Shown here: piece by piece, positions 1 to 63,249 of the stretch
How the letters are laid out: each line of letters starts with the position of its first letter
How positions within the stretch are numbered: the first letter of the stretch is position 1
Assembly (NCBI GenBank): GCA_963575745.1
Contig: CAUYUJ010000225.1
Coordinates: 1,054,001 to 1,118,000 of the forward strand
Direction: 5' to 3'
DNA from: Prorocentrum cordatum
Lineage: Eukaryota
DNA: 64,000 bases
Program-made: the position numbers and the translations under genes
The notes under the pieces: generated by a model
Told to the model about the DNA's origin: nothing
Seen by the model: only the letters and a program-made list of their open reading frames with translations
Databases searched by the model: none

Positions 1-974
1 GGACGGCGGCAACGGAGAGGCGCGGGCCCAGTCCTGCTCCCAGCCGGAAGGGCCCAATCCCCCGGCTGACCCGTCTTGGTCATGATTGGACCGGGCCCTG
101 GCGTGCGACCGCGGCCGCGGCCGCGTCCCCGCCCCTTGGCACCCCCTCCGCCGGCCCCCGCGGCGCCGCCGCTACTGGTGGTCTCTGTGGCCGCGGCACC
201 CGACGTGATGCGGGAATCGGCGGCCTCCGCTTTCTTCATGGACTGCTCTACCTCCCAGTCCTCCTTGGCACGGCGGGAGACGTGCTGCCTCAAGGCCGGT
301 GCCAGCAGCTCGTCCGCCTCGCCGAGCGGCGTCAGGTACTTGGCGTTGGCGAACGACGGGGCCCCGCCGCGCTCGTAGGCGCCCACTATGGCGTTGAGCC
401 GGCGGGTGGGCGCGATGTTCTTCTCTCTCAGGAACTTCTCGAGCAACGCTCGTGGGGGGCCCCACGTGCGGTACATCATCTTGCACGTGTGGAGGCACGT
501 CAGGCCCCCCTCGAGTCGCTGATGCCCCCAGTCGTGGCTCACCGACTCGTTGGTAGCCTTCCTGAACTCCTTGAACCGCTCCCCCTGGTCGCCCCACTCG
601 ACCCAGAAGGTTCTCGTGTCGTCGCCACTCCGCTCCTCTGGTCTCGGGCCTCCATCACCGGCGTCGGCCCCCGCGTCGCAGTCGCCTGGCCCTGGCGGTG
701 GTGCCTCTCCGCCTGGAGCAGGTCCGGCACCAAGGGCCAGGGGCCCATCACCAGGAGCAGCGGCCGGCGGCACCATCTCCAGGAGACGGCGCAGCTCCTC
801 CACGCGACGAGACGCCCAGTCGACCACCTCCGCCTCTGGCATCTGCTCCGCTCGCCATGCTCGGCCGCGCCGGTGCCAGAGGGCGTCGATCCCCACCCCA
901 ATCAGGGTCTGTCGTGGCGTCCACGATGGAGCCGATCGGCAGCCCAGGCGCGGGCTCCGCCAAGGCCCACACGC
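1..974 (-). pseudogene. 3' part of a decayed gag-like ORF (probably from an older retroelement, possibly DIRS-like) interrupted by LTR element A
   Basis: Minus-strand translation gives VWALAEPAPGLPIGSIVD near 970. After a frame change it reads DDTRTFWVEWGDQGERFKEFRKATNES...LEKFLREKNIAP...AIVGAYERGGAPSFANAKY...GRGRGRGRG, open to the window edge. It rejoins 12568-13061 across the CACGC TSD. The DIRS assignment is recall of similar dinoflagellate ORFs and is unverified. Confidence 0.5.
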
Positions 975-1126
975 AGTTGAGAATAGGAATGGGATGTAGG
1001 AGAGATCTTTTCCAGTACGTGTGAAACAAAGCTTGATTCTCTGACTCGAGCCTAATGGTTACGGTGAGGGCTGGCCGCAACGCGCGCGTAGCAGAGGTCA
1101 CCTGGCTGGGAATATACCTTTCGACT
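975..1126 (-). repeat. 3' LTR of element A
   Basis: Plus strand AGTTGAGAATAGG...CCTTTCGACT, identical by eye to 12416-12567. Confidence 0.97.
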
Positions 1127-1133
1127 CTGGTAC

Positions 1134-1143
1134 TTCTCCTTTG
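1134..1143 (-). promoter_or_regulatory. Polypurine tract of element A
   Basis: Minus strand AAAGGAGAAG lies a few nt upstream of the 3' LTR. Confidence 0.6.
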
Positions 1144-1263
1144 GTGGCTGTAAGCGCCACAGACACCACAGTTCCTTGGAAAATATCGCTGCGCTCTCTG
1201 TTCCAAAAACACAGCAAAGGAAAATGGCATCCAGCACTCAGAAAAGGAAGCTCCAGCCATCAC

Positions 1264-4200
1264 TCACATGTACCTCTGTTTCTTCTTCGGATGCATCGAC
1301 GGGTTGCTCCACGGAGCCCTCGTGGGGCACTCATTACCCCAATGGCCCAACTTGCCGCACACGCGGCACTGGCCCGGCTGCAGCGCCCCACTCGGCTTCG
1401 AACCGTCGCTGGGCGCAGGGCGCTTCGGCGCTGCGCGCGTGGCCCACGGGGACGCCGTTGGGCCAGGCGCGGCCTTCGGCGCTGCCGTCACCACTGGCCG
1501 GAGCGGCACCGATCCGCTCGTGGCCTGGCCGGCCTTCGGCGCAGCAGTCGGGCCAAGCGGGCCCAACCGGAGTGGGTCCGATCCACTCTCGGCGTCTACG
1601 CGCCTTGGCTGCGCCGGCCGAGACTTAGGCTGAGTCCCGACAAACTCCGGAGCTTGCTCCTGCTTCGCCGCTGCCCGTGCGCGGAGTCGGTTGTACAGCT
1701 CCCGGAGGTCGGTGTCGTGCTCGTTCTTCTTGTCGTCGACGTCGCGGTCGTACTTCCGCTTCTCCTCTTCGTGCCTCCAATGCCTGACGCGGTTGTTGGC
1801 TGGCTCGCCGTCCGTGTCGGAGTCGCACTCGCGCTTGAGGTCCGCCTCGTGCATGTGCTTCTGCCGCTTCTCCGGGTATTTCTCCACGAGCGCTGTCAAC
1901 CACGTGAACTCGTCGTCCCGGTACTTCCGCAGCAGACTGTCCAACCTCGATACATTGTCGGGGTTGAGCTTTTCGTAAGCGACGGTCATCACCTCGCGCC
2001 ACTCCCGTGCGCCAGGGCGCGGGGGCGTGTCCAAGCGCTTGGCGACGCGTACCACGCGACGCAGCGTCCATGGCTCCATGTCGTCGTCCTGCTCCTCCTT
2101 GGCGACGACGCGCGCGGGGTAGAAGAGCTGCACCTGCGGCCGGACTGTCGGGAACACCTTCACCTTGTCCTTCTGCACGATCTTCCACGCCCCCGTCCTG
2201 AGCGCTGTAAGGAGGGCGTCCCGGGCGACCTTGCCCTTCGTAAGGGCGTCTGCGAGCATGTCCCGGGTGTCGATCCAGCGCAACTCCCAGACGCGGCCTG
2301 CGAGCAAGTGCTGCTTGAGCGCCTTGATCTCGTAGAGCATCTGCTGCTCCGTGGGGCATTTCGTGCTCTCGTTCGCGATCGCTGCGAACACCGACATGGC
2401 ATCCACGTACAGCACGATCTTGATGTCGAACTCGCACGCCTCCAGCCGGCGACTCAATTCAGCTGCAGACGCGGTCCCGTAGAAGACCTCCTGGAAGAAG
2501 CCAGCCAGAAGCATGCCCTCCTCTGCGGCTTCGCTGAGATTGTGCATCTCTGCCGCGAACGTGCTCCTGCAAACCCGCGTCTGCTTCCGCGACCAGAAGT
2601 CGATCGCCAGGAAGCTGTCGTCCAAGGTGCCACCAAGGCCTGCGAGCAGACCCCGGAGAGCCAGACAGTCGGGATCAGCAGCCTTGAAGGCGCTATCCCC
2701 GGGAATTCTCAACACCGGCTCGCCCCTGATCCCGTGGTACTTGATGCAGCTCTTCTGCTTCTTGAGCCACTTCAGGAGCTTATTGAGGTCGTGCACGTCG
2801 CGGCAGCGAGGCGCCGTGTTGGCATCGCTGCACCTTTGCAGGTAGCCAACGAAGACCAAGCCATCGGCGCGGCACATTGTCACCCAGGCCACGCCACCGC
2901 GCAAGCTCATGAACTGCTGGTGGACGTCCTGGGGCACCTGTTCCTCCTCCTTGAGTGTCCCCAGAGCTGGGTGCACTATCGGGCGCAACTGGGACAAGTA
3001 GTGGTCCTGGCTGCACTCGATGTCGTGGTGGTTATGCGGGTTCTGTGTGTGCATGACACCGCAGCACTCGAAGATGCCGTACTTCCGGTCTTTGATCGGC
3101 CCAAACGCCCGCTCCAACACCTGAAGCAAGATCCTGTGATGCTTGCCGTCTGTGTGGTCGCAACCCTTGAGGTCGTCGACGTGGGCGGATACAGCCTGAA
3201 CCAATACTTTCTTTTTCGTGTTCTGGCCCGTCTCGTGCTTCGCGTACATCAGGGGCTGCGCCTGGGTAGGACGCAAGCCGGCCTCCCGCAGCACCTCGTC
3301 CAGCTTGAGGCTGAAAGCGCGTGGGGCCACAGTGGAGCCCATGACGGGCTTGTCTGGCTCCAATACCTCCAACACCGGGTCGAAGGACTCGAAGCCAGGA
3401 ATCTGCCTCAGCAGGGGCACCGTGCCCGGAGGCAGCTCCAACTGCATGTCCATCTCTGGCACCCCCGTCTTGTCGCTGAGCTCCTTGAAAGTGAGGCCCC
3501 GGAGAAACGCCTTAGGCACGTCCAACATCCACAACTGGTGGCCGTGAATGGCCGCCACTGCGGTCAGGGCTCGCTGTCCCCAGCGAGAGGCTGTCCCCGA
3601 GTACGTGTCCATCACGTCCTTGAGCCTGTCCTTGAAGCCCCGGGCCGTGAGCCGTGCTCGTACGGCACGCGCCTTGTCGATGATCTTCCACTTGACCACC
3701 CACCGCATGTCCGCGATGTTGCTGGCACCCTTCCTTGGGCGCCTCCTCATGTTGCACAGCTTGATCCACTCCTTGAGCTCGCTCAACATTGCTGCGTTCA
3801 CCTCGGGGCGGTGTTCCTGCATCTCCGCCGGAGACAGCAGAGGCAAGTCACGTTCAATGACTGCCTGTGGCTTTCTTGCTCCCGAAACCATCCACGCTGC
3901 CACGTGGCCGTCGGGAATACTGCTTACCCCGAGGCTGTCCATGAAGTGGTCCAAGAAGATGCCGTCGACCTCAAGGAGCGCCTTGTTCCGCTCCTCGTCG
4001 CTGTACGGCACGTGCTCGCCAATACCTGATGACACGAAGTACGTCGCATCCGGGGGAGATGCCATCGAAGCAACCATGTCCAGGTACTCGTCGCTCTTGT
4101 CCAATGGCAGGCTAGCGTAGTCCACCACGAAGTTTTCGGCGACCTCCCCGAACTCCTCAGAAGAGATGTCGTCATCATCGTCAACGTCTGTGCGAATGCC

Positions 4201-7200
4201 AGGGCCTGGCCGGGTAGACGTCACCGCATCTTGCTGCCTAGCGGCCTGCATCGGCGATGGGTTGCCGGAGCTACCTTCAGAGCGCTGCCGGACCTGTCCA
4301 CGAGGCGTCTCTGGCGCACTTGAGCCCATAGACTCCGGACTCGGCGTCGACGATGGCGTAGCATGTACAAGAGGAGGTGCGAGGGGAGCATCATGCCGTG
4401 CTGGAGGCGCTGGATTGGGGAACGTGCCGATGATGATGTTAGGCTCGTGGTCCTCCTGATGATGACCCTCCTGATGATCAATACTCGGTTCATCCATCAT
4501 GGACTGCTGCTTCATATGATCTAAAACCTGATCTTGTGTATCTGTGCTCATGATGAACTGCACGATGTTTTGCCTATTCCAATCGTTCCCCACTTCTTTG
4601 GTTAGATCCAGCTGCCTAGACGAAGGATGCTGTAACCAATGAGGTTCTCCCCGACGCCCAGTGACCCACCAGTAAATGATGGAAGGCCCTCCACAAGGAA
4701 GCGGCGTAAGATGCTTGACCCCTCTGGCAAGACGCACTGCACAGCAAGAGGTTAACCCGAACAAGTGTGAAGCCACACTGAAAGCTGCACGTGCGATCGC
4801 TGGGAATCGCCTCGTCGCTGTCGTCATCTTCCACATATCCGTTTTAACGTCGACCAAGAAACCCAAAGCGATAACTCCAGGATCCAGGGACTCCACGAAG
4901 TTGGACAGGGCCTCGAACGGGCTGCTGAATGCCTCGGCGTGGTGCTGGAGAAAGAAGGCACACCACAAGACGAGAGCCTTGCGTACGTCCTGGATTCGTG
5001 CCGTCATATGCCGGCCATGCCACTTAAAGCCGATCTGGCCCTCAGGGATGCCGGTGAGGTCGGTCACCACGCACGGGCCTCGCCATCCTGAGGTATCCTT
5101 GTTCGGCGGGTCCCTGAAGAAATCGATGCAATCGCCTACCTTCAAGTCCAGCTTCTCGCCGGCCTCGCGGGTCTTGGACTGCAAGCTCCGGCTAATCTTG
5201 TCCGCTGCCGTCGCCTGCGCGATGGTACTAACAGCTGCATGTCGAAGTCGTGCAACGTGTCGGCTAACACCAGCGGTGCCCTCGCTGTCGTCCTCCAGCT
5301 CGGTGGCACTCGCCGGCTCGAAGTTTAACAGAAGGTTCATTTGCCTGCCGAAGACGGCCTGGTACGGCGAGACGCCCTTGATGTTGGTCAGAACGTTCTT
5401 GGCCAAGAGCGCCTCCGCCAAGATGCACTCATTAGGGGCTGGGGTCCCGTCCTGAGTGAGCTGGTCCTTGATCAGGTGGAGCTGGTCCCTGAGCAGGGCG
5501 TTATGCCGCTCGACCATCTGAGCGTGGGCCGCCTTGGGCTTGAACACGAGGTTCGTGCCCCATCGGGACGCCCAGGCTCGGCCCTCGTCTGAATCGAGTG
5601 CCCCTTCATGATCAGACGTGATCCTCAGAGGTACTCCGAAGATCCGGAACCAGAGGTTCGTGATAGCCTCCAGGATCGTCGCGGTCTCCCTGTTGGGAAT
5701 CAGTCCTCCTGCAGCGAAGCGCACGCACTTGTCCAGGAGGTGGCACACAATCAAAGCCTCCCAGAACATGAGGTCGAACTGAATCTCCTCATTGAAGTGC
5801 GCGCAGATGGAGGCGCTACCAATCGACCTGGGAGCGACGTCCTGCCAACTACGGCAGATCCTACACGTATCTACGATGCCCTGGACTTGGTCGATGACGT
5901 GCGATGGCGCACCAGCCACCGTCAGAAGGTCACGAAGACGCTGAGCAGGACAGTGCCAGAGCCTGATGTGGATCTTCCGCAGCGTACGGCGGACCACACC
6001 AGGAGACTTGCTCAGCAGCAGGGGCAAGGCGCGCCCGAGGTCCCACTGAGACCATTCTTCGGGCAGACTGTCGGCCTGAGTTCCGATCTCAGCCTTCTGG
6101 ACCCTCGGGGCACGAGGAGCTCCAGGGGCAACAGGTGCAGGGGCACTGGCGGCGTCGCCAACTGCCGAAGGCTCAGGACCGCCTTCGGCGGGAGCCTCCT
6201 GCGCAGCCGCTAAGCGGCGGTGCTCTTCCTCTGCAGCTTGATCTGCCTCCTCCTCAGCTCCTAAGTTCGGCGCGGCCTTCATCGTAGACGTGGGATCCTC
6301 GCTGGCCCGGATGCGGCCGTCACGAGGATGTGCTCCAAGTCGCGGATTGCCGCGGCGCTCCGGAGCTCCACTCCACCGACAACGATCGTCCAGAAGATGG
6401 GACTCGTGGTGACGAGGTTTACCGGCCATGCAGCCCGGGCACTGGGTACCCCAGGGGGCAACGTCAGCCCATCGGCAGACACCTGGGACACGAGTGTGCC
6501 TCGGATCCAGCATGCTCACGTTCTTCCCACATGCCTTGCAGATGTCCTTGGCCGGGACACCAGCGCCGGCGACGCCCGGCATGCTCCCAGACGAGCCGCC
6601 AGACGATGTCGGGTAGTGACTCGTAATGGTGTCCACGTAGGTGTCCCTGATCACGTCGGCGATGCCTGCGGCGATGGTGGAAGCCAGCTTCCACGTCCAG
6701 ATCTGGTCAGGACCTGGAAGGCCACCTGTAGTAGTGACGTGCTCGTGGTCCCCATTGCATCGTAGTTGCCGAAGACGCCAGATCAGCCGCTCGTCGCTGG
6801 CTACGAACTCGGTCGGCTTCTGGATCAAGTGGTGTGGAGGTCGTTGATCCCGTAGTCCAGTCATGCACTGATGCATTGAGCAACGCACCACGGCAGGATG
6901 AGCCAACACATCCGGCCACGGAAACACCCTGTTGAGGCTAGTGCCCAAAAAATGCTCTCGAATGAAGTGTCGTTGCGAAAGAAGCTGATGGACAGCGACG
7001 TCTCCACAAAGCCGGCCAAACTTCTGACTGATCTTCCGCGGCGGCGCCATAACGATAACTAAGGGCTTCGCCGCGCGGATGTATCGCCACATGGCCGTCA
7101 CGTCGTCGTCGTTCATCAAGTCGCAGTTCGTCGCAAAATCTAGGTTCGCCCCTGCACGAAAACCGTGCCGAAACCTGCGGCGAACCAAGCACTGGGTAGT

Positions 7201-10200
7201 GCGACCCTCGCCGCCCAGGATCTCCATGATGTCCACGTGTTCATTGTCGTTTTGCTGCGTGTGGAAGTCCATGAGCATGGCGTCGAAGGAGAAAAAATGA
7301 GCTGCGTCTGGGGCCCGAGAGTGGAAAAAAGAACGGCCAAAGAGCCACCACGTCGGGTCCACCATGTCCGCGATGTCTTGCTCCTCCTGGTCGACAAGGG
7401 CCCGGTCAAGATACTGCACATGGTACTCGGATATTCGCTCCTCGTTCCAGTAGTCCTTGCCGTCAACGGTGATGCTGCCGAAGTCCTCGCCGCAGTCGTC
7501 GAAGTGCTGCTCTGCCTCTGGGCGAGGCTTGCGTGTCCTCGCTGCCTTGATGCCCTTTTCCGCCGCGAACTTTTTCTTCATGTCCCACTGTTCCTTTTGT
7601 CGCTCGCGAGCGTCCGTCGGGAAAGCCTCCCGAATCTGATCCAGGCTATCGTCGTTAACGTCGGACTCGTCGATCGTGGTTGTAACTCGTGTTTTCGACT
7701 CTGGTACGTCTCCTTGTTCCTTGCTGCGATATGACCCAGGGCGGCCAGAGGCGGCCCGGAAGCTCGGAAGAAGGGTCCGAACAAAGTTCACGATGAATCC
7801 GATGAGCATCATGATGTCCTTCGAATTGCGAGTCCGGCCAGTCGTCGACGATGGCGGCGGCGAGGTGCACTTGCAGACCGACCGGTCTGGCAAGGGAAAC
7901 GATGACAAAACCAACGTGTTCCGATGAATGGGCGTGTTGGTGTCCAGGTCCACCACGCCATAGTTGCACCATAAATGCTGGGAGTGGTGGAGTCGCTTGT
8001 CGGACCTCATCGCCATAACGCCGGGCAGATCCCACGCATAGTCGCGCAGGTTGCCCTCGATCAAGACGTGCCGTCCTTGATCCAACTGCGTGTTGATCAG
8101 CGTCAGCATCGATCGGCTCTGTCGCTCGTCGTGTCGGTCTCCACGTGGTGTTTTGCACCCCGTGAGCCGCATCCAGAGCAAGTCAGGCTCCTGGCTGCGG
8201 ATGTCCATGAGCTGGTATCTGAGATGATCGTGACTGTAGTTCCTGCGCATCTGCACGTTGTGGGTGCGAAGGCGTTCGTCGCGCAGGGCACTCTGTCGAA
8301 TGCCGTTTTCGTCGTCGTAGAGATAAACGAGATAAGATTCTGATGCAGATGAGTGTAAATGTAAATTTGGATTCGATGTCGAATTCTGGAGGCCCTTCGT
8401 CTGCTCGGTCGTGGCGTGCCCATCGTAGTGTCGATGTCCTGCTCGTAACGGTTCTCGGCTGCCTGGTGAGGCCTCGGCCCTGCCTCCGGTCCTGTGCGGG
8501 CTTTCGGCAGCACTGCCTCGAGAGAATCCGCCAGCTCCACGCCGAGCGACGGCCGGCTCCGCATTGCCGGAAGGCCTCATCATGCACGGAGTCGGGAGTT
8601 CGCGGGCGTCGTCGAATCGAACCTGCTTGCTCGCGCCTGGTGGGGCGCCGGCCCTGCCTTCGGCCCTGTGCGGACCTCCAACAGCATTGCCTGAGCACGC
8701 AGGGGCGGCCGAGACGCCAGTGCAAGGTGTCGTCGGTGAAGTCGTCATTTGTCCCCCCTGCACAACGGGGAACTGACTCGTCGACTGTTGCTGCTGTATG
8801 TGCTCTGTGTTTTTGGGTGTGGGTGTTGAGATCGAATCGAACTCCGTGATTGGCAGAAGAAGGTGTCCGCTCTCAGTCTTCTCCAAGTTTAAGGTTAAGC
8901 TGCCTGGGGGCAGCTTGATCTCGTAATCACCAGATCCCAAGAAATAAAGCTTCTGCCCGGAGATGTCGATGAGTGCTCGTCGTTGTTCCAAGGTTTTCAT
9001 TCCCAGTAGTGCTGGAACGTCGGAGTTGGGGATGACAGGGCTCTGGTACGTGCCCGTGTCGCCGGTCTCCAAGATCATGGGCACGAGAGCCTTCGCGTTG
9101 CAGTCCTGGGGCCCGGCTCCGACCCCTTCCACGGTCAAGGAACGATCCATGTTCATCTCATCGACGTCCATGTTGTGTTTCTTGAGGATGGCCTGGACGC
9201 GGCGGACCCAGGCGTCTCCAGTCAGATTGTCGTGAGCGCCTGGGTCGATGAGGAGGCCCTCGCGGTCCGGCCCCTTCAGGCGGGCCCTCGAGTGCCAATA
9301 CTCAGCCTCACCACCACCGCCGTTCATGCTCATGTCAAGCTCAACCATGCGTGGGCCCCAGGGATAGTGGAGTTGAGGTGCTCGTGGTCGTAGGATGTTG
9401 CTGATGGCGTGCATTTGCTGCGTGCGGTCCTCGTGATCGTCGTGGCCGCGATTAGGTCGTCGCCGTTGGGGTTGATCATGCTGTGGTGGTGGCTGCGGCG
9501 CGAACCCCGCGCCAGGAGCTGGACAACCAGCTAACGACAGACCTGGTACCAATCCAGGCTGATTAAGCCCTACACCTGGTACCAATCCAGGCTGATTAAC
9601 ACCTACACCTGGCACCAATCCAGGCTGATTAACACCTGCACCTGGTACCCATCCAGGCTGATGGTCAACCAGCGGCCCTGGTGCCGATCCAGGGCGTTGC
9701 CACGATTGAGCCACCGTGGCTAGAGATGCAGGTGCCGATCCTGCAGGCGCCGCAGGGACCAATCCTGCGAAGCCGTGGCCTATGGGTGGCCTTGACGCTG
9801 GTGCCAATCCAGCCGTCCCTTGAGCGAGAAGTGGCCTAGATGGGGATGGTGACGATCCAATCATTGGGATACCATGGCCCAGATATGATGTGGATTCTGA
9901 CGCCGGTGCCGATCCGGCCATCATCTGGGAGGCGGAATAGGCGGCAGCCTGCGGAGTAACAACGCTGGATGCAAGGGTGCCTGGTGCCGGCTCCAATCCG
10001 GCATCGCCTCTCTGTGCCAGGGTCTCGCCGCCAGTCCCGCCAGGTGTCATCTCACTCTGCCTCGCGCCAGCAGGTGCCATATCACTCGTCGCGCCGGCAG
10101 GTGTCATATCACTCGTCGCGCCGGCAGGTGTGATATCACTCCTCATCCTCGTCCTCGCATCCTCTGCCTGAAGGGGAGGTTGAGGAGGAGTGATGTGTGA

Positions 10201-10824
10201 CAGATTTTGAATGATGGATGACAGATTCTGGCATTTAGCCAAACACGGAGTGAATGCTGGAGCCGATCCAGACATTCCGCTTGGCGCTGGTACCGATCCA
10301 GCTGGCCACTGAGCTCCGGGCTCAAAGGCTGGGGCCAATCCAGCCGTAGCAGGGCTGCCAGGAGCAGCCGCGATGTTCTCGACCATCGCTAAGCATCCTG
10401 GTGGCTGTGGCTGCGGCGCGGCCGCCGCTGGGCCTCCCCAGGGATCTCCGCGGACCCACGGGTCCTCGCCGTCGGAATGGGCAGCTTTTCCGTGATCCAG
10501 CCTGCAAGCTACGGCCTGCGGCCTCCCGCGCCTGTCGTCCCAGTCAACCTCGTAGGTCACCTCCGCGCCGGCGGAGAGCGAGGGGCCCGTGACATTCGAC
10601 GCGTGGATGAAGATGTCCTTGCCGCCGTCGCTCGGGACAATGATGCCCCAGCGCTCCTTGTCGTTGTACTTCTTGACGCGGCCGCGCGCTCGCGCACACG
10701 CGCTCGCGCAGGGGCTCGGCGTCGGTGGCGCCCGCTGTCCTGCAGCTGGAGCGGCTGCTGCTGGCCAGGAAATGTGGCTGGCTGGCCAACAAGTCCCCAG
10801 GAGGGCGAAGATTGCTGCATCTGG
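1264..10824 (-). CDS. pol: Pol-type polyprotein frame of element A: cold-shock domain, protease, two DNMT-like modules, Zn fingers, integrase, RT, RNase H, CCHC
   Basis: The ORF track gives 3098 aa from GTG at 10560, but the frame stays open up to a TAG at 10827-10825. Motifs: LLIDPGAHDNL...ALLGM (PR); HIRLWH...CRIC with DLMF/SDHEG/VERHN (IN); RARLTARGF, LDVPKAFL, HVDD (RT); GDSAF, STFAAE, YVDA, ADALTK (RH). Confidence 0.95.
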   Translation of the reverse strand, partial: PDAAIFALLGTCWPASHISWPAAAAPAAGQRAPPTPSPCASACARARGRVKKYNDKERWGIIVPSDGGKDIFIHASNVTGPSLSAGAEVTYEVDWDDRRGRPQAVACRLDHGKAAHSDGEDPWVRGDPWGGPAAAAPQPQPPGCLAMVENIAAAPGSPATAGLAPAFEPGAQWPAGSVPAPSGMSGSAPAFTPCLAKCQNLSSIIQNLSHITPPQPPLQAEDARTRMRSDITPAGATSDMTPAGATSDMAPAGARQSEMTPGGTGGETLAQRGDAGLEPAPGTLASSVVTPQAAAYSASQMMAGSAPASESTSYLGHGIPMIGSSPSPSRPLLAQGTAGLAPASRPPIGHGFAGLVPAAPAGSAPASLATVAQSWQRPGSAPGPLVDHQPGWVPGAGVNQPGLVPGVGVNQPGLVPGVGLNQPGLVPGLSLAGCPAPGAGFAPQPPPQHDQPQRRRPNRGHDDHEDRTQQMHAISNILRPRAPQLHYPWGPRMVELDMSMNGGGGEAEYWHSRARLKGPDREGLLIDPGAHDNLTGDAWVRRVQAILKKHNMDVDEMNMDRSLTVEGVGAGPQDCNAKALVPMILETGDTGTYQSPVIPNSDVPALLGMKTLEQRRALIDISGQKLYFLGSGDYEIKLPPGSLTLNLEKTESGHLLLPITEFDSISTPTPKNTEHIQQQQSTSQFPVVQGGQMTTSPTTPCTGVSAAPACSGNAVGGPHRAEGRAGAPPGASKQVRFDDARELPTPCMMRPSGNAEPAVARRGAGGFSRGSAAESPHRTGGRAEASPGSREPLRAGHRHYDGHATTEQTKGLQNSTSNPNLHLHSSASESYLVYLYDDENGIRQSALRDERLRTHNVQMRRNYSHDHLRYQLMDIRSQEPDLLWMRLTGCKTPRGDRHDERQSRSMLTLINTQLDQGRHVLIEGNLRDYAWDLPGVMAMRSDKRLHHSQHLWCNYGVVDLDTNTPIHRNTLVLSSFPLPDRSVCKCTSPPPSSTTGRTRNSKDIMMLIGFIVNFVRTLLPSFRAASGRPGSYRSKEQGDVPESKTRVTTTIDESDVNDDSLDQIREAFPTDARERQKEQWDMKKKFAAEKGIKAARTRKPRPEAEQHFDDCGEDFGSITVDGKDYWNEERISEYHVQYLDRALVDQEEQDIADMVDPTWWLFGRSFFHSRAPDAAHFFSFDAMLMDFHTQQNDNEHVDIMEILGGEGRTTQCLVRRRFRHGFRAGANLDFATNCDLMNDDDVTAMWRYIRAAKPLVIVMAPPRKISQKFGRLCGDVAVHQLLSQRHFIREHFLGTSLNRVFPWPDVLAHPAVVRCSMHQCMTGLRDQRPPHHLIQKPTEFVASDERLIWRLRQLRCNGDHEHVTTTGGLPGPDQIWTWKLASTIAAGIADVIRDTYVDTITSHYPTSSGGSSGSMPGVAGAGVPAKDICKACGKNVSMLDPRHTRVPGVCRWADVAPWGTQCPGCMAGKPRHHESHLLDDRCRWSGAPERRGNPRLGAHPRDGRIRASEDPTSTMKAAPNLGAEEEADQAAEEEHRRLAAAQEAPAEGGPEPSAVGDAASAPAPVAPGAPRAPRVQKAEIGTQADSLPEEWSQWDLGRALPLLLSKSPGVVRRTLRKIHIRLWHCPAQRLRDLLTVAGAPSHVIDQVQGIVDTCRICRSWQDVAPRSIGSASICAHFNEEIQFDLMFWEALIVCHLLDKCVRFAAGGLIPNRETATILEAITNLWFRIFGVPLRITSDHEGALDSDEGRAWASRWGTNLVFKPKAAHAQMVERHNALLRDQLHLIKDQLTQDGTPAPNECILAEALLAKNVLTNIKGVSPYQAVFGRQMNLLLNFEPASATELEDDSEGTAGVSRHVARLRHAAVSTIAQATAADKISRSLQSKTREAGEKLDLKVGDCIDFFRDPPNKDTSGWRGPCVVTDLTGIPEGQIGFKWHGRHMTARIQDVRKALVLWCAFFLQHHAEAFSSPFEALSNFVESLDPGVIALGFLVDVKTDMWKMTTATRRFPAIARAAFSVASHLFGLTSCCAVRLARGVKHLTPLPCGGPSIIYWWVTGRRGEPHWLQHPSSRQLDLTKEVGNDWNRQNIVQFIMSTDTQDQVLDHMKQQSMMDEPSIDHQEGHHQEDHEPNIIIGTFPNPAPPARHDAPLAPPLVHATPSSTPSPESMGSSAPETPRGQVRQRSEGSSGNPSPMQAARQQDAVTSTRPGPGIRTDVDDDDDISSEEFGEVAENFVVDYASLPLDKSDEYLDMVASMASPPDATYFVSSGIGEHVPYSDEERNKALLEVDGIFLDHFMDSLGVSSIPDGHVAAWMVSGARKPQAVIERDLPLLSPAEMQEHRPEVNAAMLSELKEWIKLCNMRRRPRKGASNIADMRWVVKWKIIDKARAVRARLTARGFKDRLKDVMDTYSGTASRWGQRALTAVAAIHGHQLWMLDVPKAFLRGLTFKELSDKTGVPEMDMQLELPPGTVPLLRQIPGFESFDPVLEVLEPDKPVMGSTVAPRAFSLKLDEVLREAGLRPTQAQPLMYAKHETGQNTKKKVLVQAVSAHVDDLKGCDHTDGKHHRILLQVLERAFGPIKDRKYGIFECCGVMHTQNPHNHHDIECSQDHYLSQLRPIVHPALGTLKEEEQVPQDVHQQFMSLRGGVAWVTMCRADGLVFVGYLQRCSDANTAPRCRDVHDLNKLLKWLKKQKSCIKYHGIRGEPVLRIPGDSAFKAADPDCLALRGLLAGLGGTLDDSFLAIDFWSRKQTRVCRSTFAAEMHNLSEAAEEGMLLAGFFQEVFYGTASAAELSRRLEACEFDIKIVLYVDAMSVFAAIANESTKCPTEQQMLYEIKALKQHLLAGRVWELRWIDTRDMLADALTKGKVARDALLTALRTGAWKIVQKDKVKVFPTVRPQVQLFYPARVVAKEEQDDDMEPWTLRRVVRVAKRLDTPPRPGAREWREVMTVAYEKLNPDNVSRLDSLLRKYRDDEFTWLTALVEKYPEKRQKHMHEADLKRECDSDTDGEPANNRVRHWRHEEEKRKYDRDVDDKKNEHDTDLRELYNRLRARAAAKQEQAPEFVGTQPKSRPAQPRRVDAESGSDPLRLGPLGPTAAPKAGQATSGSVPLRPVVTAAPKAAPGPTASPWATRAAPKRPAPSDGSKPSGALQPGQCRVCGKLGHWGNECPTRAPWSNPSMHPKKKQRYM
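1328..1369 (-). other. C-terminal CCHC zinc knuckle of Pol
   Basis: CRVCGKLGHWGNEC fits CX2CX4HX4C. Confidence 0.9.
2230..2720 (-). other. RNase H domain (copia type)
   Basis: IPGDSAFK...WSRKQTRVCRSTFAAE...LYVDAMSVF...WIDTRDMLADALTK. Confidence 0.9.
2950..3810 (-). other. Reverse transcriptase domain (copia type)
   Basis: AMLSEL...RWVVKWK...RARLTARGF...LDVPKAFL...KPVMGSTVAPRAF...HVDD. Confidence 0.92.
4960..5985 (-). other. Integrase (HHCC plus DDE)
   Basis: LRKIHIRLWHC...CRICRSW; FNEEIQFDLMF; FGVPLRITSDHEG; AQMVERHN. Confidence 0.92.
6370..6540 (-). other. Two tandem CX2C-X10-H-X5/6-C putative zinc fingers
   Basis: CKACGKNVSMLDPRHTRVPGVCRW and CPGCMAGKPRHHESHLLDDRCRW; a homologous pair is present in element C. 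Confidence 0.7.
6650..7240 (-). other. C5 DNA-methyltransferase-like domain 2 (catalytic Cys absent in this copy)
   Basis: Motif I-like DIMEILGGEG, motif IV-like KPLVIVMAPP, motif VI-like HFIREH, then HQCMTG, KPTEF and CNGDHEH. Confidence 0.75.
7860..8340 (-). other. Highly diverged DNMT-like domain 1
   Basis: EPDLLWMRL...QLDQGRHVLIEGN..YAW...WCNYG...P...TLVLSS...CKC follows the motif order of domain 2 and is mirrored in element C. Confidence 0.5.
8850..9270 (-). other. Retroviral-type aspartic protease
   Basis: GLLIDPGAHDNL (D-x-G), VEGVGAG flap, VPALLGMKTL, HLLLPI. Confidence 0.85.
9541..9660 (-). repeat. In-frame 33-bp tandem repeat (about 4 copies, NQPGLVPGVGV)
   Basis: ACCTGGTACCAATCCAGGCTGATT recurs with a 33-nt period. 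Confidence 0.9.
10040..10140 (-). repeat. In-frame 27-bp tandem repeat (SDMTPAGAT, 3-4 copies)
   Basis: GCGCCGGCAGGTGTCATATCACTCGTC is repeated. Confidence 0.88.
10504..10683 (-). other. Cold-shock domain (CSD) in the pol frame
   Basis: Manual translation: GRVKKYNDKERWGIIVPSDGGKDIFIHASNVTGPSLSAGAEVTYEVDWDDRRGRPQAVAC, with RNP1-like RWGII, RNP2-like DIFIH and the C-terminal GRPQA strand. Confidence 0.92.
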
Positions 10825-12320
10825 CTATTCACAACCATGTGCTGCGCCTGCGTGAAGAACATGCCAAGGCTCGTGGTCGCCACTGGCTGGTGGTAGCCGC
10901 AGGCGCCCATGAACTGGCGCGCCGCGCAGCCTTCCGCCACACCACCAGAAATCATCCTCTGGATCTGCTGCGTCTGGTCCGTCTGGGGCGCGGCCGGCGC
11001 GGCACCGTCCGCGTAGTGGAACCGCGGGCGCTTCGGGCAGTGCGCCACCAAGTGTTCGTCGGAACCACACTGGTGGCATGTCAGAACCTTGCCGTCCTTT
11101 CCCGTGGGGTTCTTCTTGCCCCGGCCTTTCGCCTTGCCACCGAAGTAGGCCGAGTTGGAGCCAGCAGAACTGTGGTAGATGCCACCATGCTTGCCGAAAC
11201 CAAGGCCTTTGCCGGACTTGCCCTTTCCGGGCTGCTTGCCCCAAGACCGGCTCTTGCCCGAACCCTTGCGGGCAGGGCGTCGCGAGGCCCTCGCGTGCTT
11301 GCCCGTGAAGTGCCTCCACTTTCGGCGCGCAAGCACGTATGCTTGATGAAGCTCGTTGGCCTTCTGGTTGCTGTAATCCTGCTGGTCGTGGTCTGGTGGC
11401 GGCCCTTCCTCTGAGGTGGCGCTCGACGAGCCGTCGTCGTCTTCGTCGTATACGTACATGCCGCACGCCTCGCACTCCATGCCTGGGTGCGCGTCTGGCC
11501 AGCCGGTACCTGATCCGGCCATGGCCGGAGCAGCCGCGGCAGAACACGGGAAGAATCCGCCCGAAGCCGCGGCCCCTTGGGGAACGGACGGAGCACCGCC
11601 CCCCGGCTCGGCGAAGAAGCTCCCAAGGCCTCCGTCCGCGAAGTGCGCGCCCTGCTGGGGTGACTGGTTCATCACGCCCTCAAGCAAGTGGCCCTGGCGG
11701 CGGAGGTGTTCTTCCATCTGGATGAGCTCCTGTTCCTGCGTCGGCATGTTGCCGCCGAACGGCTGCAGCAGCAGCGTCCACATCTGTGGAGACACGTGGA
11801 GTGCCCGCAACAAATGGTATGCTGTGCCTGTAGGTCCAAGGTTCAAGTTGGCCTCCTCGTTCGCCCTGAACCGGGCCGTGGCGTAGCGGCACAGCGCAGC
11901 GTCGATCGTCTCGCCGCTCATACGCTGAAAGCCAAGATACGCTTGAGCTGCCTGTACGTTCTGCTCGTAGCCAAGCGGCAAGAACTTCTGAGACATCACA
12001 TATAGCACAATCGTCAAACCGGTCTGCATGACAGGGCCCCGGCCGTCCATCATGTCGATGGGGCCACCATTGGCCAAAACGTTCACGTCGATGGCCCGGA
12101 GGATATCGCGGACCGTGCCCGTCTGCTGTAGCACGACCGCCGGCGCCTGCTGGTTGATCGGGAGGTCTGTGACCATCGACCACAGCATCACATCTTGTAC
12201 CCATTTGCGGAAAGGGTACGTGGACGCCGTCCCCGGGTCCCATCTTGGAGGCACCTTCAGGCTGGTGCTGCCGTACACCGTCCCCGAAGGAGCAGCTGCA
12301 GTCGGCGGTGGTGCCGACAT
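10557..12320 (-). CDS. gag: Gag of element A with a CCHC knuckle
   Basis: 587-aa ORF just after the PBS; KVPPRWDP..YPFRKWVQDVMLW N-terminus, K/G-rich tract, and CHQCGSDEHLVAHC at about 11036-11078. Confidence 0.9.
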   Translation of the reverse strand: MSAPPPTAAAPSGTVYGSTSLKVPPRWDPGTASTYPFRKWVQDVMLWSMVTDLPINQQAPAVVLQQTGTVRDILRAIDVNVLANGGPIDMMDGRGPVMQTGLTIVLYVMSQKFLPLGYEQNVQAAQAYLGFQRMSGETIDAALCRYATARFRANEEANLNLGPTGTAYHLLRALHVSPQMWTLLLQPFGGNMPTQEQELIQMEEHLRRQGHLLEGVMNQSPQQGAHFADGGLGSFFAEPGGGAPSVPQGAAASGGFFPCSAAAAPAMAGSGTGWPDAHPGMECEACGMYVYDEDDDGSSSATSEEGPPPDHDQQDYSNQKANELHQAYVLARRKWRHFTGKHARASRRPARKGSGKSRSWGKQPGKGKSGKGLGFGKHGGIYHSSAGSNSAYFGGKAKGRGKKNPTGKDGKVLTCHQCGSDEHLVAHCPKRPRFHYADGAAPAAPQTDQTQQIQRMISGGVAEGCAARQFMGACGYHQPVATTSLGMFFTQAQHMVVNSQMQQSSPSWGLVGQPATFPGQQQPLQLQDSGRHRRRAPARARVRERAAASRSTTTRSAGASLSRATAARTSSSTRRMSRAPRSPPARR

Positions 12321-12396
12321 GTTGTTCTGCGGAGTGGCTGTACAGTGGTGCTCGCACGAAGGCGAGCGGTAGCGTCCAAGAAGCGAAGGATCTTAG

Positions 12397-12414
12397 TCCC
12401 CCGCTCCGCTACCA
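12397..12414 (-). promoter_or_regulatory. Primer-binding site (probably initiator tRNA-Met)
   Basis: Minus strand TGGTAGCGGAGCGGGGG starts 1 nt after the 5' LTR and is complementary to a tRNA ending CTCCGCTACCA. Confidence 0.85.
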
Positions 12415-12415
12415 A

Positions 12416-12567
12416 AGTTGAGAATAGGAATGGGATGTAGGAGAGATCTTTTCCAGTACGTGTGAAACAAAGCTTGATTCTCTGACTCGAGCCTAATGGT
12501 TACGGTGAGGGCTGGCCGCAACGCGCGCGTAGCAGAGGTCACCTGGCTGGGAATATACCTTTCGACT
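12416..12567 (-). repeat. 5' LTR of element A
   Basis: Identical to 975-1126 and followed by the PBS on the minus strand. Confidence 0.97.
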
Positions 12568-13061
12568 CACGCGCGCGGCGGGGGGGCCCACGGGAACACC
12601 TCGCCAATGTTCAGCAGGACGCCCGACGGGAGCTCGATCCTGGCCGGCGCCTCCGCGAGCGTCTGCCCGCGAGCCTCCATCGCAGCCCTGCACTCCTCCG
12701 CCAGCTCCACCAGCCGATTCAGCGTGAGCCTCTCTCTGAAGCCGTAGAGCTTACGGTCTCCCGCGGGAGGAGCGGCGCCGGCTGCCGGGCGCTCACCGCC
12801 AGAGGGGCCGTCGGCCGGGGAGGCTCCAGAGAGAAGCTCCTCCCACAGGTCCCCGTCCGGCGAGAGCACCCAGTACAGGTGCGAGTCGACAACCTCCCCG
12901 TCCTCCTCGCGCCTCGACGGCCAAACGACGACCCGCTCGTGATCCACGAGGTCGCCGAGGTAGCTCACCTTGGCGCGAGCCCCGCAGGGCAGGTCAGCGC
13001 ACCACGCCTCCCCCGCGGGCAACGGGGGCAGGGGTGCCCGGCGCCCGCGGCGGCCCAGCAT
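12568..13061 (-). pseudogene. 5' part of the gag-like ORF disrupted by element A
   Basis: VSYLGDLVDHERVVVWP...YWVLSPDGDLWEE...LYGFRE ends at the TSD and continues at 974 if one base is added in the C7 run. Confidence 0.5.
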
Positions 13062-13455
13062 GTCGTCGGAGGCCTGGGCGATTCGGGTTGCTGCAGCAAC
13101 GATCCGTCAACCAGAGCCACACTGGCGTGAGAAGACCCACGAGCACGTGCACCACCAGAGCTCTCAGCTCGTCGTCACCCTGCTGCTCCGGGCACACGCA
13201 GGGCTCGCAGTCCGCCAGCGGAGGCGGAGGGGGCGGCGGCGAGGCTGCCACGTCGAGCGCCGCCCGAGCTGCCGACTCGGCGTACAGGGCGGCGGAGGAG
13301 GCCGCCTCACAGGCCTCCGCGACCTCCTCGAGCCACGCTGGAGACACAGGCAGCGGCTCAGGCACCAGAGGCGGAGGAGACAGACGCCACCCTAGCCCCG
13401 CGAGCAGCGCCAAGCTCAAGGCCGGAAACACCGCAGCGGAACCTGGGGAAAGCAT
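12994..13455 (-). CDS. Small putative membrane protein (153 aa) overlapping the gag-like ORF start
   Basis: ATG start, hydrophobic N-terminus (AVFPALSLALLAGLGW), Pro tract, CEPCVC, second hydrophobic segment ALVVHVLVGLLTPVWLWL, basic tail. Confidence 0.45.
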   Translation of the reverse strand: MLSPGSAAVFPALSLALLAGLGWRLSPPPLVPEPLPVSPAWLEEVAEACEAASSAALYAESAARAALDVAASPPPPPPPLADCEPCVCPEQQGDDELRALVVHVLVGLLTPVWLWLTDRCCSNPNRPGLRRHAGPPRAPGTPAPVARGGGVVR

Positions 13456-38096: not shown

Positions 38097-38341
38097 TTCA
38101 GGAAACAGGAGATACAACACTGTAGATGAGAATATAGGTGATGGAATATCTGAGTGAGGTTGAGTTTGCGAAGTTGTTGTAATTATGACACTTGTGTACT
38201 GTCAAGAGCCATTGTTGGCTCAACTCATGCTTGAGGTGGAAAAGAGTTTCTACCAGCCCTTTCGGGCAAGGTCCGTGGACCCCCAGCTCCGCTACTTGAA
38301 GTTATCAAGATAACATGCACTTATTACATCGAGCACTTGCA
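38097..38341 (+). repeat. 5' LTR of element B
   Basis: Aligns with 46667-46911 with scattered substitutions. Confidence 0.92.
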
Positions 38342-45300: not shown

Positions 45301-46727
45301 TGAGTTGGACTCCAAGGCGGCCACCATATTCAGGAGCATCAACGGCCTCAACATGTTCAAATGTTTAGAGAGGCCTGAATGTCAATATGCAACTAAAGAG
45401 TGCTCGAGGGGGATGTCACGGCCTACGGTTCAGGAACAAGCGAGGCTCACGCGCATCATCAGATTCGTTCGAGCTCATCCGTCTTCGGTCACGTGTATGT
45501 ATCCTAAGAACGGCGAGTTCAAGATCACGGGACGTGCAGATTCGAATTGGGCGGAGGATCCTATCGGCAGAAAGTCTACCAGCTGCGGGCAGCTGTTTCT
45601 CAACGGAACACGTATCATGCAGCTCGTTAGGACCCAAGGGGCTCCAGCTCCCTCGTCCCCCGAGGCTGAGTTCAACGCGCTCGTGCACATTGGGATCGAG
45701 TCGAGAGGGGCCCAGACATATCTCAAGGAGCTCTTGGACGAGACGGTGCCCGTGACGCTGGAGAGCGACAATTCGAGCGCCCTGACCCACGTCGAGAAGA
45801 AGAGTCGGCAGGATGCGACACATCGAGTTGAAGGATTTGTGGCTCAAAGACCTCGTCGCGCGCAAAGCTGAGACGAAGGTCAGTACCAACGAGGTCAAGA
45901 CCGACGAGAACACGGCAGATCTTGGGACCAAGCATCTCGCAAGAGCCGATCTTATGAGGCACCTGACGGCAATGAAGGTATGGCTCACTGGGAAGGGCGA
46001 AGTTGGTGGAATTTCGAGTTCAAGTTCAAGCAACGACAAGAAGGGCCAGATCGGTAAGCCTGCGCTGGAGTTGATGGGAGCTCTTACTCAGTGTTTAGTT
46101 GGCTTGGGTGCGTTTCTACAAGTGGGACGTGCTGACGCTACGGAGTTGTGGGATAAGAGCAGCTACCAGCCAGCCGCGATCATTGGTCAAGGTGATGAAG
46201 GCCATTTTGGCAATCCTCACGTGGTCCACACGTTGGCGGTCATCCTTACCACCGTCATCGTGATGGTTACTGCCTACAAAGCTAAGCAGACGATGGACTA
46301 CGCACTACGACCCGCACGCAAGGACGCCTCGACTCAGTACATCTTGAAGCACGCGATGGAGAATCCAGAAATGGACAAATCAGTTAGACTTCATCATCGG
46401 GCCATATTCACAGCCATGACGATCGAGAGTGGACGTCATTACTTACGTGTTCGGAGGGCTGGCCGATCCTTCTCAACATCGAGGAAAGGAGAAATGATCG
46501 AGATGTGTATCGAGACCACCCTCGGCGAGATTGACAGGGAGATAGTCTACAGCATGAACGGCTCTGCAGATAGCTGGCATCCCAGCTCATGTGGTGGTAC
46601 GCTATTGAAGTGTTTCCTGTTGCGTGCCCTATCTTGGCTGTGGCTGCAGATGGTCCCGAGGAGGAGTCCAGGAAACAGGAGATATAACACTGGAGATGAG
46701 AAGATACGTGATGGAATATCTGAGTGA
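42393..46727 (+). pseudogene. pol: pol of element B (PR, IN, RT, RNase H; frameshifted)
   Basis: MLVDSGA (PR); HIRGGH..WCQKC, FDGEPA, SQGGAE (IN); KARLCAR, FDISRAFL, KIVYGL, HVDD (RT); ADSNWA..RKSTS, SSPEAE, RHIELK, NTADLGTK (RH). Confidence 0.9.
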
Positions 46728-46911
46728 GGTTGAGTTTGCGAGGTTGTTGTAATTATGACACTTGTGTACTTTCAAGAGCCAGTTTGGGCTCAACTCATGC
46801 TTGAGATGGAAAAGAGTTTCTACCAGCCCTTTCGGGCAAGGTCCGTAGACCCCCAGCTCCGCCACTTGAAGTTATCAAGATAACATACACTTATTACATC
46901 GAGCACTTGCA
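46667..46911 (+). repeat. 3' LTR of element B
   Basis: Follows the PPT and matches the 5' LTR. Confidence 0.92.
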
Positions 46912-48028
46912 TATCTATATATTTCTACAGGGCCGGGGAGCCCCCCCCCAGCGCCCCCCCCCCAACCAATTTGGCCCTCCCCGGGCCTCCGGGCAAACCT
47001 TCAGACGACCCAGGAGAACCTCACGAGAGTCCGAAGACGGCCCTGCCCTAGACGGGTTCCAGGCGTTCTTGCGCGCTCCCGAAGCGACCTGCAAAGAGCC
47101 CCAATACGGTCCACGACGACCCCCAAGAAGCCGTCATACCCCCAAATATCGTCCCGAAACATCCCAAGAGGCCTCCAAGAGCACCCCCAAGAAGGACCCA
47201 AGAGGCAAAAATCATTGATTTTCTTGGTTTGGGTGAATTTGGGGGTTCTCCTCTTTTCGGCTTCCCGACGCTCCAAGACGGCGGTCTTCTGGGCGTCCGA
47301 AGCCGGCTGGGAAGCTCTAAAATCGCCCCACAACCATCCGAAAGGGCTTCCAGGCAGTCCAAGAGAGCCCCAAAACGGCACAGCAGGGGTCCAAGATGGC
47401 CCTCAGAGAGCCCCATGGCGGCCCAAGATGGCCCCAAGACACCCTCCGAAGCATTCCAAATCGTGACCCGGTCGTTCAGGGAGACCGCGGTTGGAGGCAG
47501 GGAGGCCCGAGGAAACCCCCAGGGGCCCCCAGAACACGCCCAGGAGGCCTCCAGAAGGCCTTAACAAAGCCTGAAACAACTTTTGTGAGGCCCCCAGAGG
47601 CTCTCCAAGGAGGAGCCTCCGCAAAAAGAGCTGAGGAGGATGGGGGAATGCGCAGGGTATGGCGAAAATGAAGAAAAAGAAGCGTGGAAGAAGGATAACG
47701 AATAACATTATTATAGCGGCGATGCCGGAAAAGGCAACAAGGAGTTATCGCTACATTGTCGGCTTGACCTTCCTGCCATTCCGGCTGCATACCAAACTTC
47801 AAGGACCAAAGTGCATGGCGCGAAGCGCCACTCCAGTCTTGTGTATATATATATATATATATATGTATACACAAGATATTATTGGCTCGCTTCGCTTCGC
47901 CACAGCATCTTGTCCCTCATCCTCATCCTTGGCGCAGGAGCGCGGGTCTGGTACCTCGCCGCGCTATGTGGTCACAGAATGTGGCGAGCTCGTGAGCTTT
48001 CATTGCCATAGGAGTGTGAACTTGATGT

Positions 48029-48545
48029 GCGTCGAGGGGCTGTCGTGGGTGTCTGTTTTCGTAAGGAATGAGCATGTGCGCGGACGCAGAGCCACCCAAC
48101 GGGCCGAACCAATTTTTGCTTCACGTTGACGGCTGCTTTTTCTTTTTCGGGCCCGGGTGGGGGGCGTCTGACGCCCTCCGGGCACGCTGGCGTCGAGGGG
48201 CTGTCGTGGGTGTGGGTTTTCGTAAGGAATGAGCATGTCCCGGGGCGCGGAACCACCCGACGGGCCGCACCAATTTTTGGTTCACGTCGACGGCTGCTTG
48301 TTATTTCTCGGGCCCGGGATGGGGGGCGGCTGGCGCCCTCAGGGCACGCCGGCGTCGAGGGGCTGTCGTGGGTGTGGGTTTTTCGTAAGGAAAGAGCATG
48401 TCCCGGGGCGCGGAGCCACCCGACGGGCCGAACCAATTTTTGGTTCACGTTGACGGCTGCTTGTTCTTTTTCGGGCCAAGATGGGGGGCGCCTGGCGCCC
48501 TCAGGGCACGCCGGCGTCGAGGGGCTGTCGTGGGTGTGGGTTTGT
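48029..48545. repeat. About 162-bp tandem repeat, roughly 3.2 copies
   Basis: GCGTCGAGGGGCTGTCGTGGGTGT at 48029, 48190, 48352 and 48514. Confidence 0.9.
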
Positions 48546-49679: not shown

Positions 49680-49731
49680 CGTGGTGTGCGTGCGTTTGCG
49701 CGTGCGCGTACGTGTGTGCTTGGTGTGTGTG

Positions 49732-49763
<32 letters not shown>

Positions 49764-50010
49764 TGTGTGTGTGTGTTGTGTGTATGCGTGTGTGTATGTG
49801 TGTGCGAGTGTGTGCGTATGTTTACTGCGCATGATGAGTATGTGCGTGTGTGCTTACTTGCGTGTTCGTGTGCTCGGAGCGGCTGTGTGTGTTGCTGTCT
49901 TTGTTTGGGTGGTGTGTTAAGTAGGTGTGTGATGTATGTGTGTGCTTTGCGTGTGCATGTGTGTGTACACGCTGCGTGATGTGTGTGTGTGTGTATATGA
50001 ATGTGTGTGC
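49680..50010. repeat. Degenerate (GT)n microsatellite
   Basis: Direct reading. Confidence 0.9.
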
Positions 50011-51618: not shown

Positions 51619-51853
51619 AGTTAGGAGGGGGCGGTAGGCCCGACCAAAAGCTACGCCGTAGGCGAAGCGCAGCTCCAGCTCTGTTGTATCGTAGTAGCGG
51701 TAGTCCCAGTAGTAAGAAGTTGTCGCGGGAGCGACGGGCCATCTCAAGCGACAAATGTTTTCGGTCTCGGCGGCGAATCGTACACCTCGACCTGAGGTAT
51801 GGTCAAATATAAGCGGCCGGCCGCTTGGGCACAAACGGCCACGGACACACGCT
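51619..51853 (-). repeat. Possible 3' LTR of element C
   Basis: On the minus strand it follows purine-rich AGGCGAGAGGTAACG, starts AG and ends CCTAACT, like element A. There is no second copy in the window to confirm it. Confidence 0.35.
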
Positions 51854-63247: not shown

Positions 63248-63249
63248 TA

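Follow-up and report, generated by a model that had tools for sequence, protein, structure and literature searches.

A copia-type LTR retrotransposon of Prorocentrum cordatum with AG...CT tips, and a clade of relatives whose ends may have departed from TG...CA

In the integration of retroviruses and LTR retrotransposons no cis feature is, to our knowledge, better conserved than the CA-3' end, and TG...CA tips are near-universal. In the 64,000-nucleotide stretch of Prorocentrum cordatum DNA analysed here (the window), a pair of direct repeats appears to begin with AG and to end with CT, which raises the question of whether these boundaries are real, whether they belong to one copy or to a family, and whether the integrase reads its ends differently. 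BLAST of positions 941-1180 against the window returned a single long second copy, 975-1127 being identical to 12416-12568 at 153 of 153 positions (E 5e-77). Compared base by base, the identity stops at 974/12415 (C versus A) and at 1128/12569 (T versus A); ...CCCACACGC adjoins the first copy on the left, and (C)ACGCGCG... lies on the right of the second. By our own arithmetic, the chance of a 5-nt flank match such as CACGC at a fixed register is about 1 in 1000. Since the C at 1127/12568 is the last base of the identical repeat and also the first base of the putative duplication, two registers can be drawn, a 152-bp LTR with a 5-bp target-site duplication (TSD) or a 153-bp LTR with the 4-bp TSD ACGC.

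The left end of the repeat begins with AG in either register, and TG or CA is available in none. The boundaries proposed in the initial annotation, with CACGC as the TSD and AG...CT as the tips, are thus borne out with one base of register ambiguous, and the shift of register that it had named as a danger to its claim exists as the 4-bp alternative, which does not yield TG...CA either. The same annotation had described an imperfect inverted repeat with both strands ending in ACT-3', and this is what we observe: the tips of the 152-bp LTRs agree at 5 of 6 positions (AGTTGA versus AGTCGA), and both 3' ends of the element read ACT. As for the features usual in Ty1/copia elements, a 5-bp TSD is present on both flanks (the 4-bp reading also fits), and in place of TG...CA, a usual but not strictly defining tip, the element has AG...CT. 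The TSD-proven register of the clade described below comes from one copy (n = 1), the window element, which alone has both flanks. The features are collected in Table 1.

Table 1. Features of the window, tip classes among the related loci and integrase positions that differ between groups (positions refer to the window unless rows, loci or residues are named)
Feature	Position or sample	Strand	Basis or members
Downstream half of interrupted host ORF	3..974	-	residues 22-248 match P0022 281-495 (49%, 3e-52)
Target-site duplication copy 1, CACGC on + strand	970..974	.	same 5 nt at 12568-12572, flush with repeat
3' LTR in element sense, 152 bp, + strand AGTTGA...TCGACT	975..1126	-	100% identical to 12416-12567
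Polypurine-type tract, minus strand AAAGGAGAAGTACCAG, directly upstream of 3' LTR	1127..1142	-	duplicated centrally
pol ORF, 3186 aa, stop-free	1264..10824	-	Pfam CSD 1.7e-9, RVT_2 1.7e-6, zf-CCHC 4.7e-4
Reverse transcriptase, copia type, residues 2372-2552	3169..3711	-	Pfam RVT_2
Integrase, HHCC finger and D,D,E core, about residues 1590-1890	5155..6057	-	family profile matches avian sarcoma virus integrase core
Extra conserved domain, about 200 residues, putative C5 DNA methyltransferase-like fold (weak)	6628..7239	-	predicted structure comparison
Central duplicate of tract and first 8 nt of LTR, candidate central polypurine tract	7693..7715	-	22/23 identical with 1119-1141, E 8e-5
gag-like ORF, 611 aa, overlaps pol in another frame	10557..12392	-	CCHC-like knuckle by eye
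Primer-binding site (PBS), minus strand TGGTAGCGGAGCGGGGGAC	12396..12414	-	one base (12415) from LTR; first 12 nt conserved in relatives
5' LTR in element sense	12416..12567	-	100% identical to 975-1126
Target-site duplication copy 2, CACGC	12568..12572	.	base-by-base comparison
Upstream half of interrupted host ORF	12573..13106	-	residues 98-171 match P0022 137-210 (47%, 2e-16)
Element B, older copia-type	LTRs about 38097-38341 and 46667-46911	+	LTRs 94.7% alike, RVT_2 match
Element C, third degraded copia relic, related to 975-12567	about 52125-56739	-	tblastn pieces 26-40% identity, including extra domain
ACT before TGG	7 clade rows		L001, L005, L012, L027, L028, L033, L034
ACT plus one base before TGG	3 clade rows		window element, L009, L010 (L009/L010 near-identical)
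AGT before TGG	2 clade rows		L015, L047
AGC before TGG	2 clade rows		L023, L029
ATT before TGG	1 clade row		L049
LTR start AGT	11 loci		window element, L001, L008, L009, L010, L021, L027, L028, L033, L034, L049
LTR start AAT	1 locus		L047
LTR start AAA	3 loci of one family		L004, L005, L007
Clade/sister integrase difference	residue 1621		Arg/Asn
Clade/sister integrase difference	residue 1767		His (30/30) / Gln (9/9), five residues before catalytic Glu
Clade/sister integrase difference	residue 1827		Arg/Lys

The repeats enclose an 11.6-kb Ty1/copia-type LTR retrotransposon (975-12567), apparently intact, whose coding strand is the minus strand, an orientation missed in the initial annotation. 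Read in its own sense, the element opens with the TSD GCGTG, the LTR AGTCGA...TCAACT, a single T and the PBS TGGTAGCGGAGC..., continues with gag and pol, and closes with the tract, the second LTR and again GCGTG. In pol, the protease is followed by an extra domain, the integrase, the reverse transcriptase (RT), the RNase H and a C-terminal knuckle, the integrase lying upstream of the RT as is the copia order. The RVT_2 match of pol reaches 28.3 bits against a curated Pfam cut-off of 31.6; the same domain is matched by 9 of the 10 members scanned, including all 9 full-length relatives, the best at 1.5e-20, and a family profile of the integrase matches the avian sarcoma virus integrase core at E 1.3e-5. 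No Pfam match was obtained for the gag-like ORF. The first 12 nt of the PBS are conserved in 27 related loci, from the clade as well as from its sister group (see below), and the site presumably pairs, by analogy, with the initiator tRNA-Met; no tRNA gene is present in the window. The identical LTRs, together with the open ORFs, indicate that the insertion is young.

Some details of the coding region may be added. According to the coordinates, the gag-like ORF and pol overlap over 268 nt (10557-10824), with pol in the -1 frame relative to gag. The cold-shock DNA-binding domain (Pfam CSD), unusual for copia, lies near the start of pol (10510-10686, minus strand) and scores above its cut-off. 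At the extreme C-terminus, beyond the RNase H and a tail of about 300 residues, a CCHC zinc knuckle is found (1324-1371, minus strand), its 20.6 bits being barely below the Pfam cut-off of 20.8.

The insertion splits a host ORF into two halves that are colinear on the same 658-aa homologue, P0022, and the excision of 975-12572 (11598 nt, or 3 x 3866, by our own arithmetic) rejoins them in frame. These flanking halves fit a simple insertion with a short duplication, a fit that leaves the register to the base unfixed. No Pfam domain was found in the flanking ORFs (3-974 and 12573-13106); the interrupted ORF belongs to a large family, with 237 relatives of its left half at E <= 0.001, and contigs paralogous to it, with many differences, occur in runs X1 and X4. 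The share of sampled window words was 0.81 in run X1 and small in three metagenome runs. For the contigs placed on 500-13100, the depth of run X1 over the element is about that over the flanks, and neither an empty-site joint nor a clear second insertion was detected among them. One X1 contig has its start at 1098, 30 nt into the LTR, which is what a graph branch at 1127/1128 would produce. Two further contigs may represent other insertions or LTR variants: one from X1 fits from 969 onward and is preceded by 38 other letters, and one from X2, a marine metagenome, follows the window as far as the PBS end at 12414, beyond which come 8 non-LTR letters.

To place the element among its relatives, a protein search was performed with the integrase-RT part; the 18 proteins it returned are 24-38% identical and, where named, belong to Symbiodinium and Effrenium, and 17 of the 18 carry a precomputed PF07727 match. 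Scanning with an alignment of these proteins yielded 73 related loci from metagenome contigs (L numbers in Table 1). In a quick maximum-likelihood RT tree of 50 rows, 38 rows including the window element were separated from 12 others, hereafter the clade and the sister group, each branch with an SH-aLRT of 100; the tree has long branches, and the position of long rows in it is uncertain. On this sequence-based placement, the element is in a clade that has so far been seen among proteins of dinoflagellates (Symbiodiniaceae) and on contigs of marine metagenomes, and the scan of viral contigs with the family alignment gave no relatives. A 15-mer scan for ACT plus PBS in genome contigs gave 120 loci, of which one (L092) encodes a relative; having been chosen by this very pattern it lends no independent support, and its LTR start is not placeable. 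As nearly all clade contigs have LTRs collapsed by assembly, their boundaries are deduced from the adjoining PBS, from similar motifs and from terminal inverted repeats. For L001, L015, L023, L047, L049 and L060, each contig carries one and the same stretch of 63-376 nt at its two ends and is a circular permutation with one LTR; these forms may stem from the assembly collapse of identical LTRs, or possibly from one-LTR circles or tandem arrays.

Fifteen of the 38 clade rows carry the PBS, and the bases directly before its TGG were scored. In none of the 15 rows is CA found at the last two or the last-but-one positions before the PBS, and ACT, with or without one extra base, ends 10 of them. 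The LTR starts, located after a conserved ...CAACCTG or ...TACCAG, are mostly AGT (Table 1). The tips of L029, where a flank sets the end of the 3' LTR, are AGA...AGC, and in the L023/L048 family the comparison of internal and flanked contexts gives GAC as the start. In L001 the terminal inverted repeat, AGTCGAAA, is perfect over 8 nt. At 10365-10480 of L029, the end of the 3' LTR (...TCGAGC) abuts 9 nt equal to the LTR's own start (AGAAGTGTT), which resembles an LTR-LTR junction. The sister group, with the same PBS as the clade, presents another picture. L059, the one element of this group with both flanks complete, has the tips TGTGA...TCACA, AT-rich sequence on either side and a single base between LTR and PBS. 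The LTR starts with TG in 3 of 3 cases (L059, L073, L068), and at 6 of 9 sites the PBS follows CA, directly or after one further base; AA or TA plus T is read at the remaining three.

A further property of the LTR start emerged from the comparison of the elements. A second copy of the 8 bases before and the 10 bases after it is found several kb upstream in 9 of 15 elements, namely the window element and 8 related loci (at most 4 mismatches), and odd variants co-vary between both copies, as with AATTGAA in L047 and AGTTAAAAGG in L021. The duplicate is absent in the 6 other elements, several of which are short contigs and one of which, L001, is complete. Lentiviruses and yeast Ty1 have central polypurine tracts, in which the 3' tract that primes the plus strand likewise recurs inside the element, and by this analogy the duplicate is most simply read as a candidate central plus-strand priming site. 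Unlike those tracts, the duplicate described here spans the cleavage site and takes in the first 7-10 bases of U3, and the LTR-adjacent tract of most relatives is not purine-rich (…CAACCTG). If the priming reading is true, the first bases of U3 would be part of the signal that sets the cut, which would help to explain why the LTR start is conserved in elements whose proteins are only about 35% identical.

Two other copia-type elements are present in the window. Element B ends with ...TTGCA directly before TGGTAGCG and starts with T(T/C)CAGG, and by eye a duplication matching at 4 of 5 positions (TATGT/TATCT) can be seen; as it ends in CA and has a similar PBS start, a CA-ending copia element coexists with 975-12567 in the same DNA. 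The proteins of Element B match no fetched metagenome locus, and the pol fragment of L059 has no match to Element B; without detectable similarity to the fetched loci, it is not placeable in the clade or in the sister group. Its ORFs are broken, and tandem repeats extend across its first 3 kb. For Element C, no LTR pair was found by BLAST of 47000-52500 against 56000-64000, and no PBS within 2 mismatches. The only candidate for its LTR start, at 51868 on the minus strand, has 2 mismatches to the motif and no central duplicate, and the number of such matches is what chance would give (7 found, 7.7 expected). The remark in the initial annotation that the candidate LTR of Element C also fits AG...CT is thus not confirmed by these searches. 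Dense tandem arrays occupy the window at 13.8-17.1 kb, 23-31 kb, 37.7-40.7 kb and 58.2-63.3 kb, with units of 64 bp, 9-12 bp, 11 bp (at least 51 copies at 39.6-40.2 kb) and about 1.1-1.27 kb (x5).

The reading that we consider probable is that 975-12567 is a young, apparently intact copia element of a clade whose ancestral att ends are AGT...ACT, with a terminal inverted repeat of about 8 bp, AGTYGAAA, and whose integrase has adapted to them. Judged by position, the ends of the cDNA are set by the PBS and the tract. The minus strand would be begun at the base adjoining the PBS and the plus strand at the A that opens AGT, so that the linear cDNA would have the tips AGT...ACT, with up to one additional base at U5; the integrase would join the 3'-OH of a T (...CT-3'OH, not CA-3'OH) at both ends with the usual 5-bp stagger, and the LTR start would be further constrained as part of the plus-strand priming signal, duplicated centrally. 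For the window element and L009/L010, the extra base between ACT and the PBS means that some trimming of the end must be assumed.

The difference in tips between the clade and the sister group is the pattern that a co-evolution of integrase and ends would predict. In an integrase alignment of 30 clade and 9 sister sequences, three positions are fixed within each group and differ between the groups (Table 1). The histidine at residue 1767 is in a loop whose aligned counterpart in avian sarcoma virus integrase is the Ser-Gln-Gly-Gln stretch, a region that touches the viral DNA tip in retroviral integrases. The comparison of integrase residues with TG...CA relatives, as proposed in the initial annotation, has thus supplied candidate positions, but since all three come from a single phylogenetic split they are a lead only and no causal proof. 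The altered end specificity that the same annotation suggested is plausible from the sequences, the non-CA ends being clade-wide and TG...CA being retained in a sister group that shares the PBS; what does not follow is its direction, since the clade is not uniform in its last three bases (ACT, AGT, AGC, ATT) and a relaxed specificity fits as well as a re-targeted one.

Such a relaxed specificity, in which the AGTYGAAA start would be kept by reverse transcription, as a tract cleavage or priming signal, and not by the integrase, is the alternative that draws on this variation of the trinucleotide at the PBS. The LTR starts vary too (AGT, AAT, AAA, AGA, GAC), and the central duplication of the first 7-10 LTR bases together with the tract, in copies that co-vary, points to a constraint outside the integrase. 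We nevertheless regard it as rather unlikely: ACT is still present in 10 of the 15 rows, and the first base is A in all loci except one family; the U5 end, which is outside the priming signal, mirrors the U3 end (5/6 here, 8/8 in L001), which argues for one protein recognizing both; and neutral drift from CA would not readily yield its absence from 15 of 15 rows.

The two other alternatives concern the window copy itself. One register puts the true LTR at 153 nt (GAGTCGA...TCAACT in element sense) with the 4-bp TSD ACGC and asymmetric ends, GA...CT; the identity does reach 1127/12568, and a G stands before AGT at the 3' LTR in most relatives as well. In those relatives, however, this G is internal sequence, closing the tract (...CCTG|AGT), and it recurs in the central duplicate, which assigns it to the primer side. 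It is the 5-bp register that gives symmetric inverted ends, and duplications of 5 bp are typical of copia-type elements according to a preprint (10.1101/137141); we give the longer LTR little credence, and its tips would still differ from TG...CA. The remaining alternative is a one-off, a copy that integrated aberrantly or mutated at its tips in a family that normally has TG...CA. It would suit a single flanked copy and the rarity of non-canonical ends in surveys as stated in that preprint, yet LTRs that are 100% identical along all 153 nt make tip mutations in both of them unlikely, the 5-bp duplication is clean, CA is missing at the PBS junction in 14 further clade rows and 11 loci, the window element among them, have the AGT start. 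An accident of this kind is, in our view, extremely improbable.

A further feature of the element and its clade is the conserved extra domain between protease and integrase, which is also present in the proteins P0003-P0016 and in many L loci. A model predicted from a 10-row alignment has a mean pLDDT of 60, with 80-93 in the core. Among 48,161 representative chains, the top 18 structural matches to this model are all C5 cytosine methyltransferases or their relatives, with Z of 5.6-7.2, values that may reflect merely a common arrangement. Foldseek with the same model gave no match at E <= 0.001, and Pfam DNA_methylase was matched by 0 of 10 members at E <= 1. The consensus of the relatives carries P-P-C and E-Q-P, which we take to be methyltransferase motifs, including the catalytic Pro-Cys; the window copy has, by eye, an Arg at the place of the Cys and E-H-F. 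As a lead, the predicted model suggests that the extra domain may have a C5 cytosine-methyltransferase-like fold. DNA methyltransferases (DNMTs) have been described in LINE and DIRS elements, the Copia elements of Symbiodinium being given in the same source as lacking DNMT domains (PMC5890265).

Copia elements are reported there as the most abundant retrotransposons of Symbiodinium genomes, and the passages of that paper on DNMT-retrotransposons contain no description of LTR tips (PMC5890265). The heat-activated SmTCL1-4 of Symbiodinium microadriaticum (PMC5776459) share with 975-12567 the integrase-RT-RNase H order, the LTRs, a length of about 10 kb and a dinoflagellate host; this is a likeness by description, the main text of that paper not describing LTR tips, PBS or duplications. 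Tips other than TG...CA are already known in plants, with Tos17 (TG..GA), TARE1 (TA..CA) and AtRE1 (TA..TA) as examples (10.1101/137141; PMC5659011). Seven plant motifs are named in the preprint (TG..GA, TA..TA, TA..CA, TG..CT, TACT, TGTA, TCCA), mostly from copia elements with short LTRs and with only the first T invariable (10.1101/137141), and the Rosaceae TGTT/AACA subfamilies have AA...CA and TG...TT ends, for which diverged integrases were suggested too (PMC5659011). As described in these sources, the plant elements resemble 975-12567 in being mostly copia-type, with short LTRs, clean duplications of 4-6 bp and a departure from TG...CA. They differ in that their motifs keep the first T or the last A, usually with one canonical dinucleotide, whereas here A...T stand outside and the inner G and C are kept, and in that their trait belongs to small families, whereas here it belongs to a deep clade. 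AG...CT is absent from the motifs named for LTR_retriever, its first base A standing against their invariable T (10.1101/137141), and our literature searches (Repbase and subscription journals outside their scope) found no description of AG...CT LTR tips. What is notable is hence not the existence of non-TGCA tips but the symmetric exchange of both outer bases and its extent over a deep clade.

Taken as a whole, these data could describe a deep, dinoflagellate-associated copia clade in which TG...CA has been replaced by AGT...ACT, so that the 3'-OH of a thymidine would be joined by an integrase with His for Gln in its active-site loop; the U3 tip would double as part of a centrally duplicated priming signal, pol would carry a divergent cytosine-methyltransferase-like domain, and LTR finders based on motifs would systematically miss or mis-trim the clade in genomes of dinoflagellates. 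This complete picture, with all its parts together, is put forward tentatively. In annotation pipelines that accept only TGCA or a few exceptions known from plants, such elements would be overlooked or their borders misplaced. The central duplicate, with its U3 bases, offers a testable reason for the conserved LTR start, and a clade with ...CT-3' ends, beside a sister group that shares its PBS, has a homologous integrase and retains CA, amounts to a natural experiment on how an integrase reads its ends.
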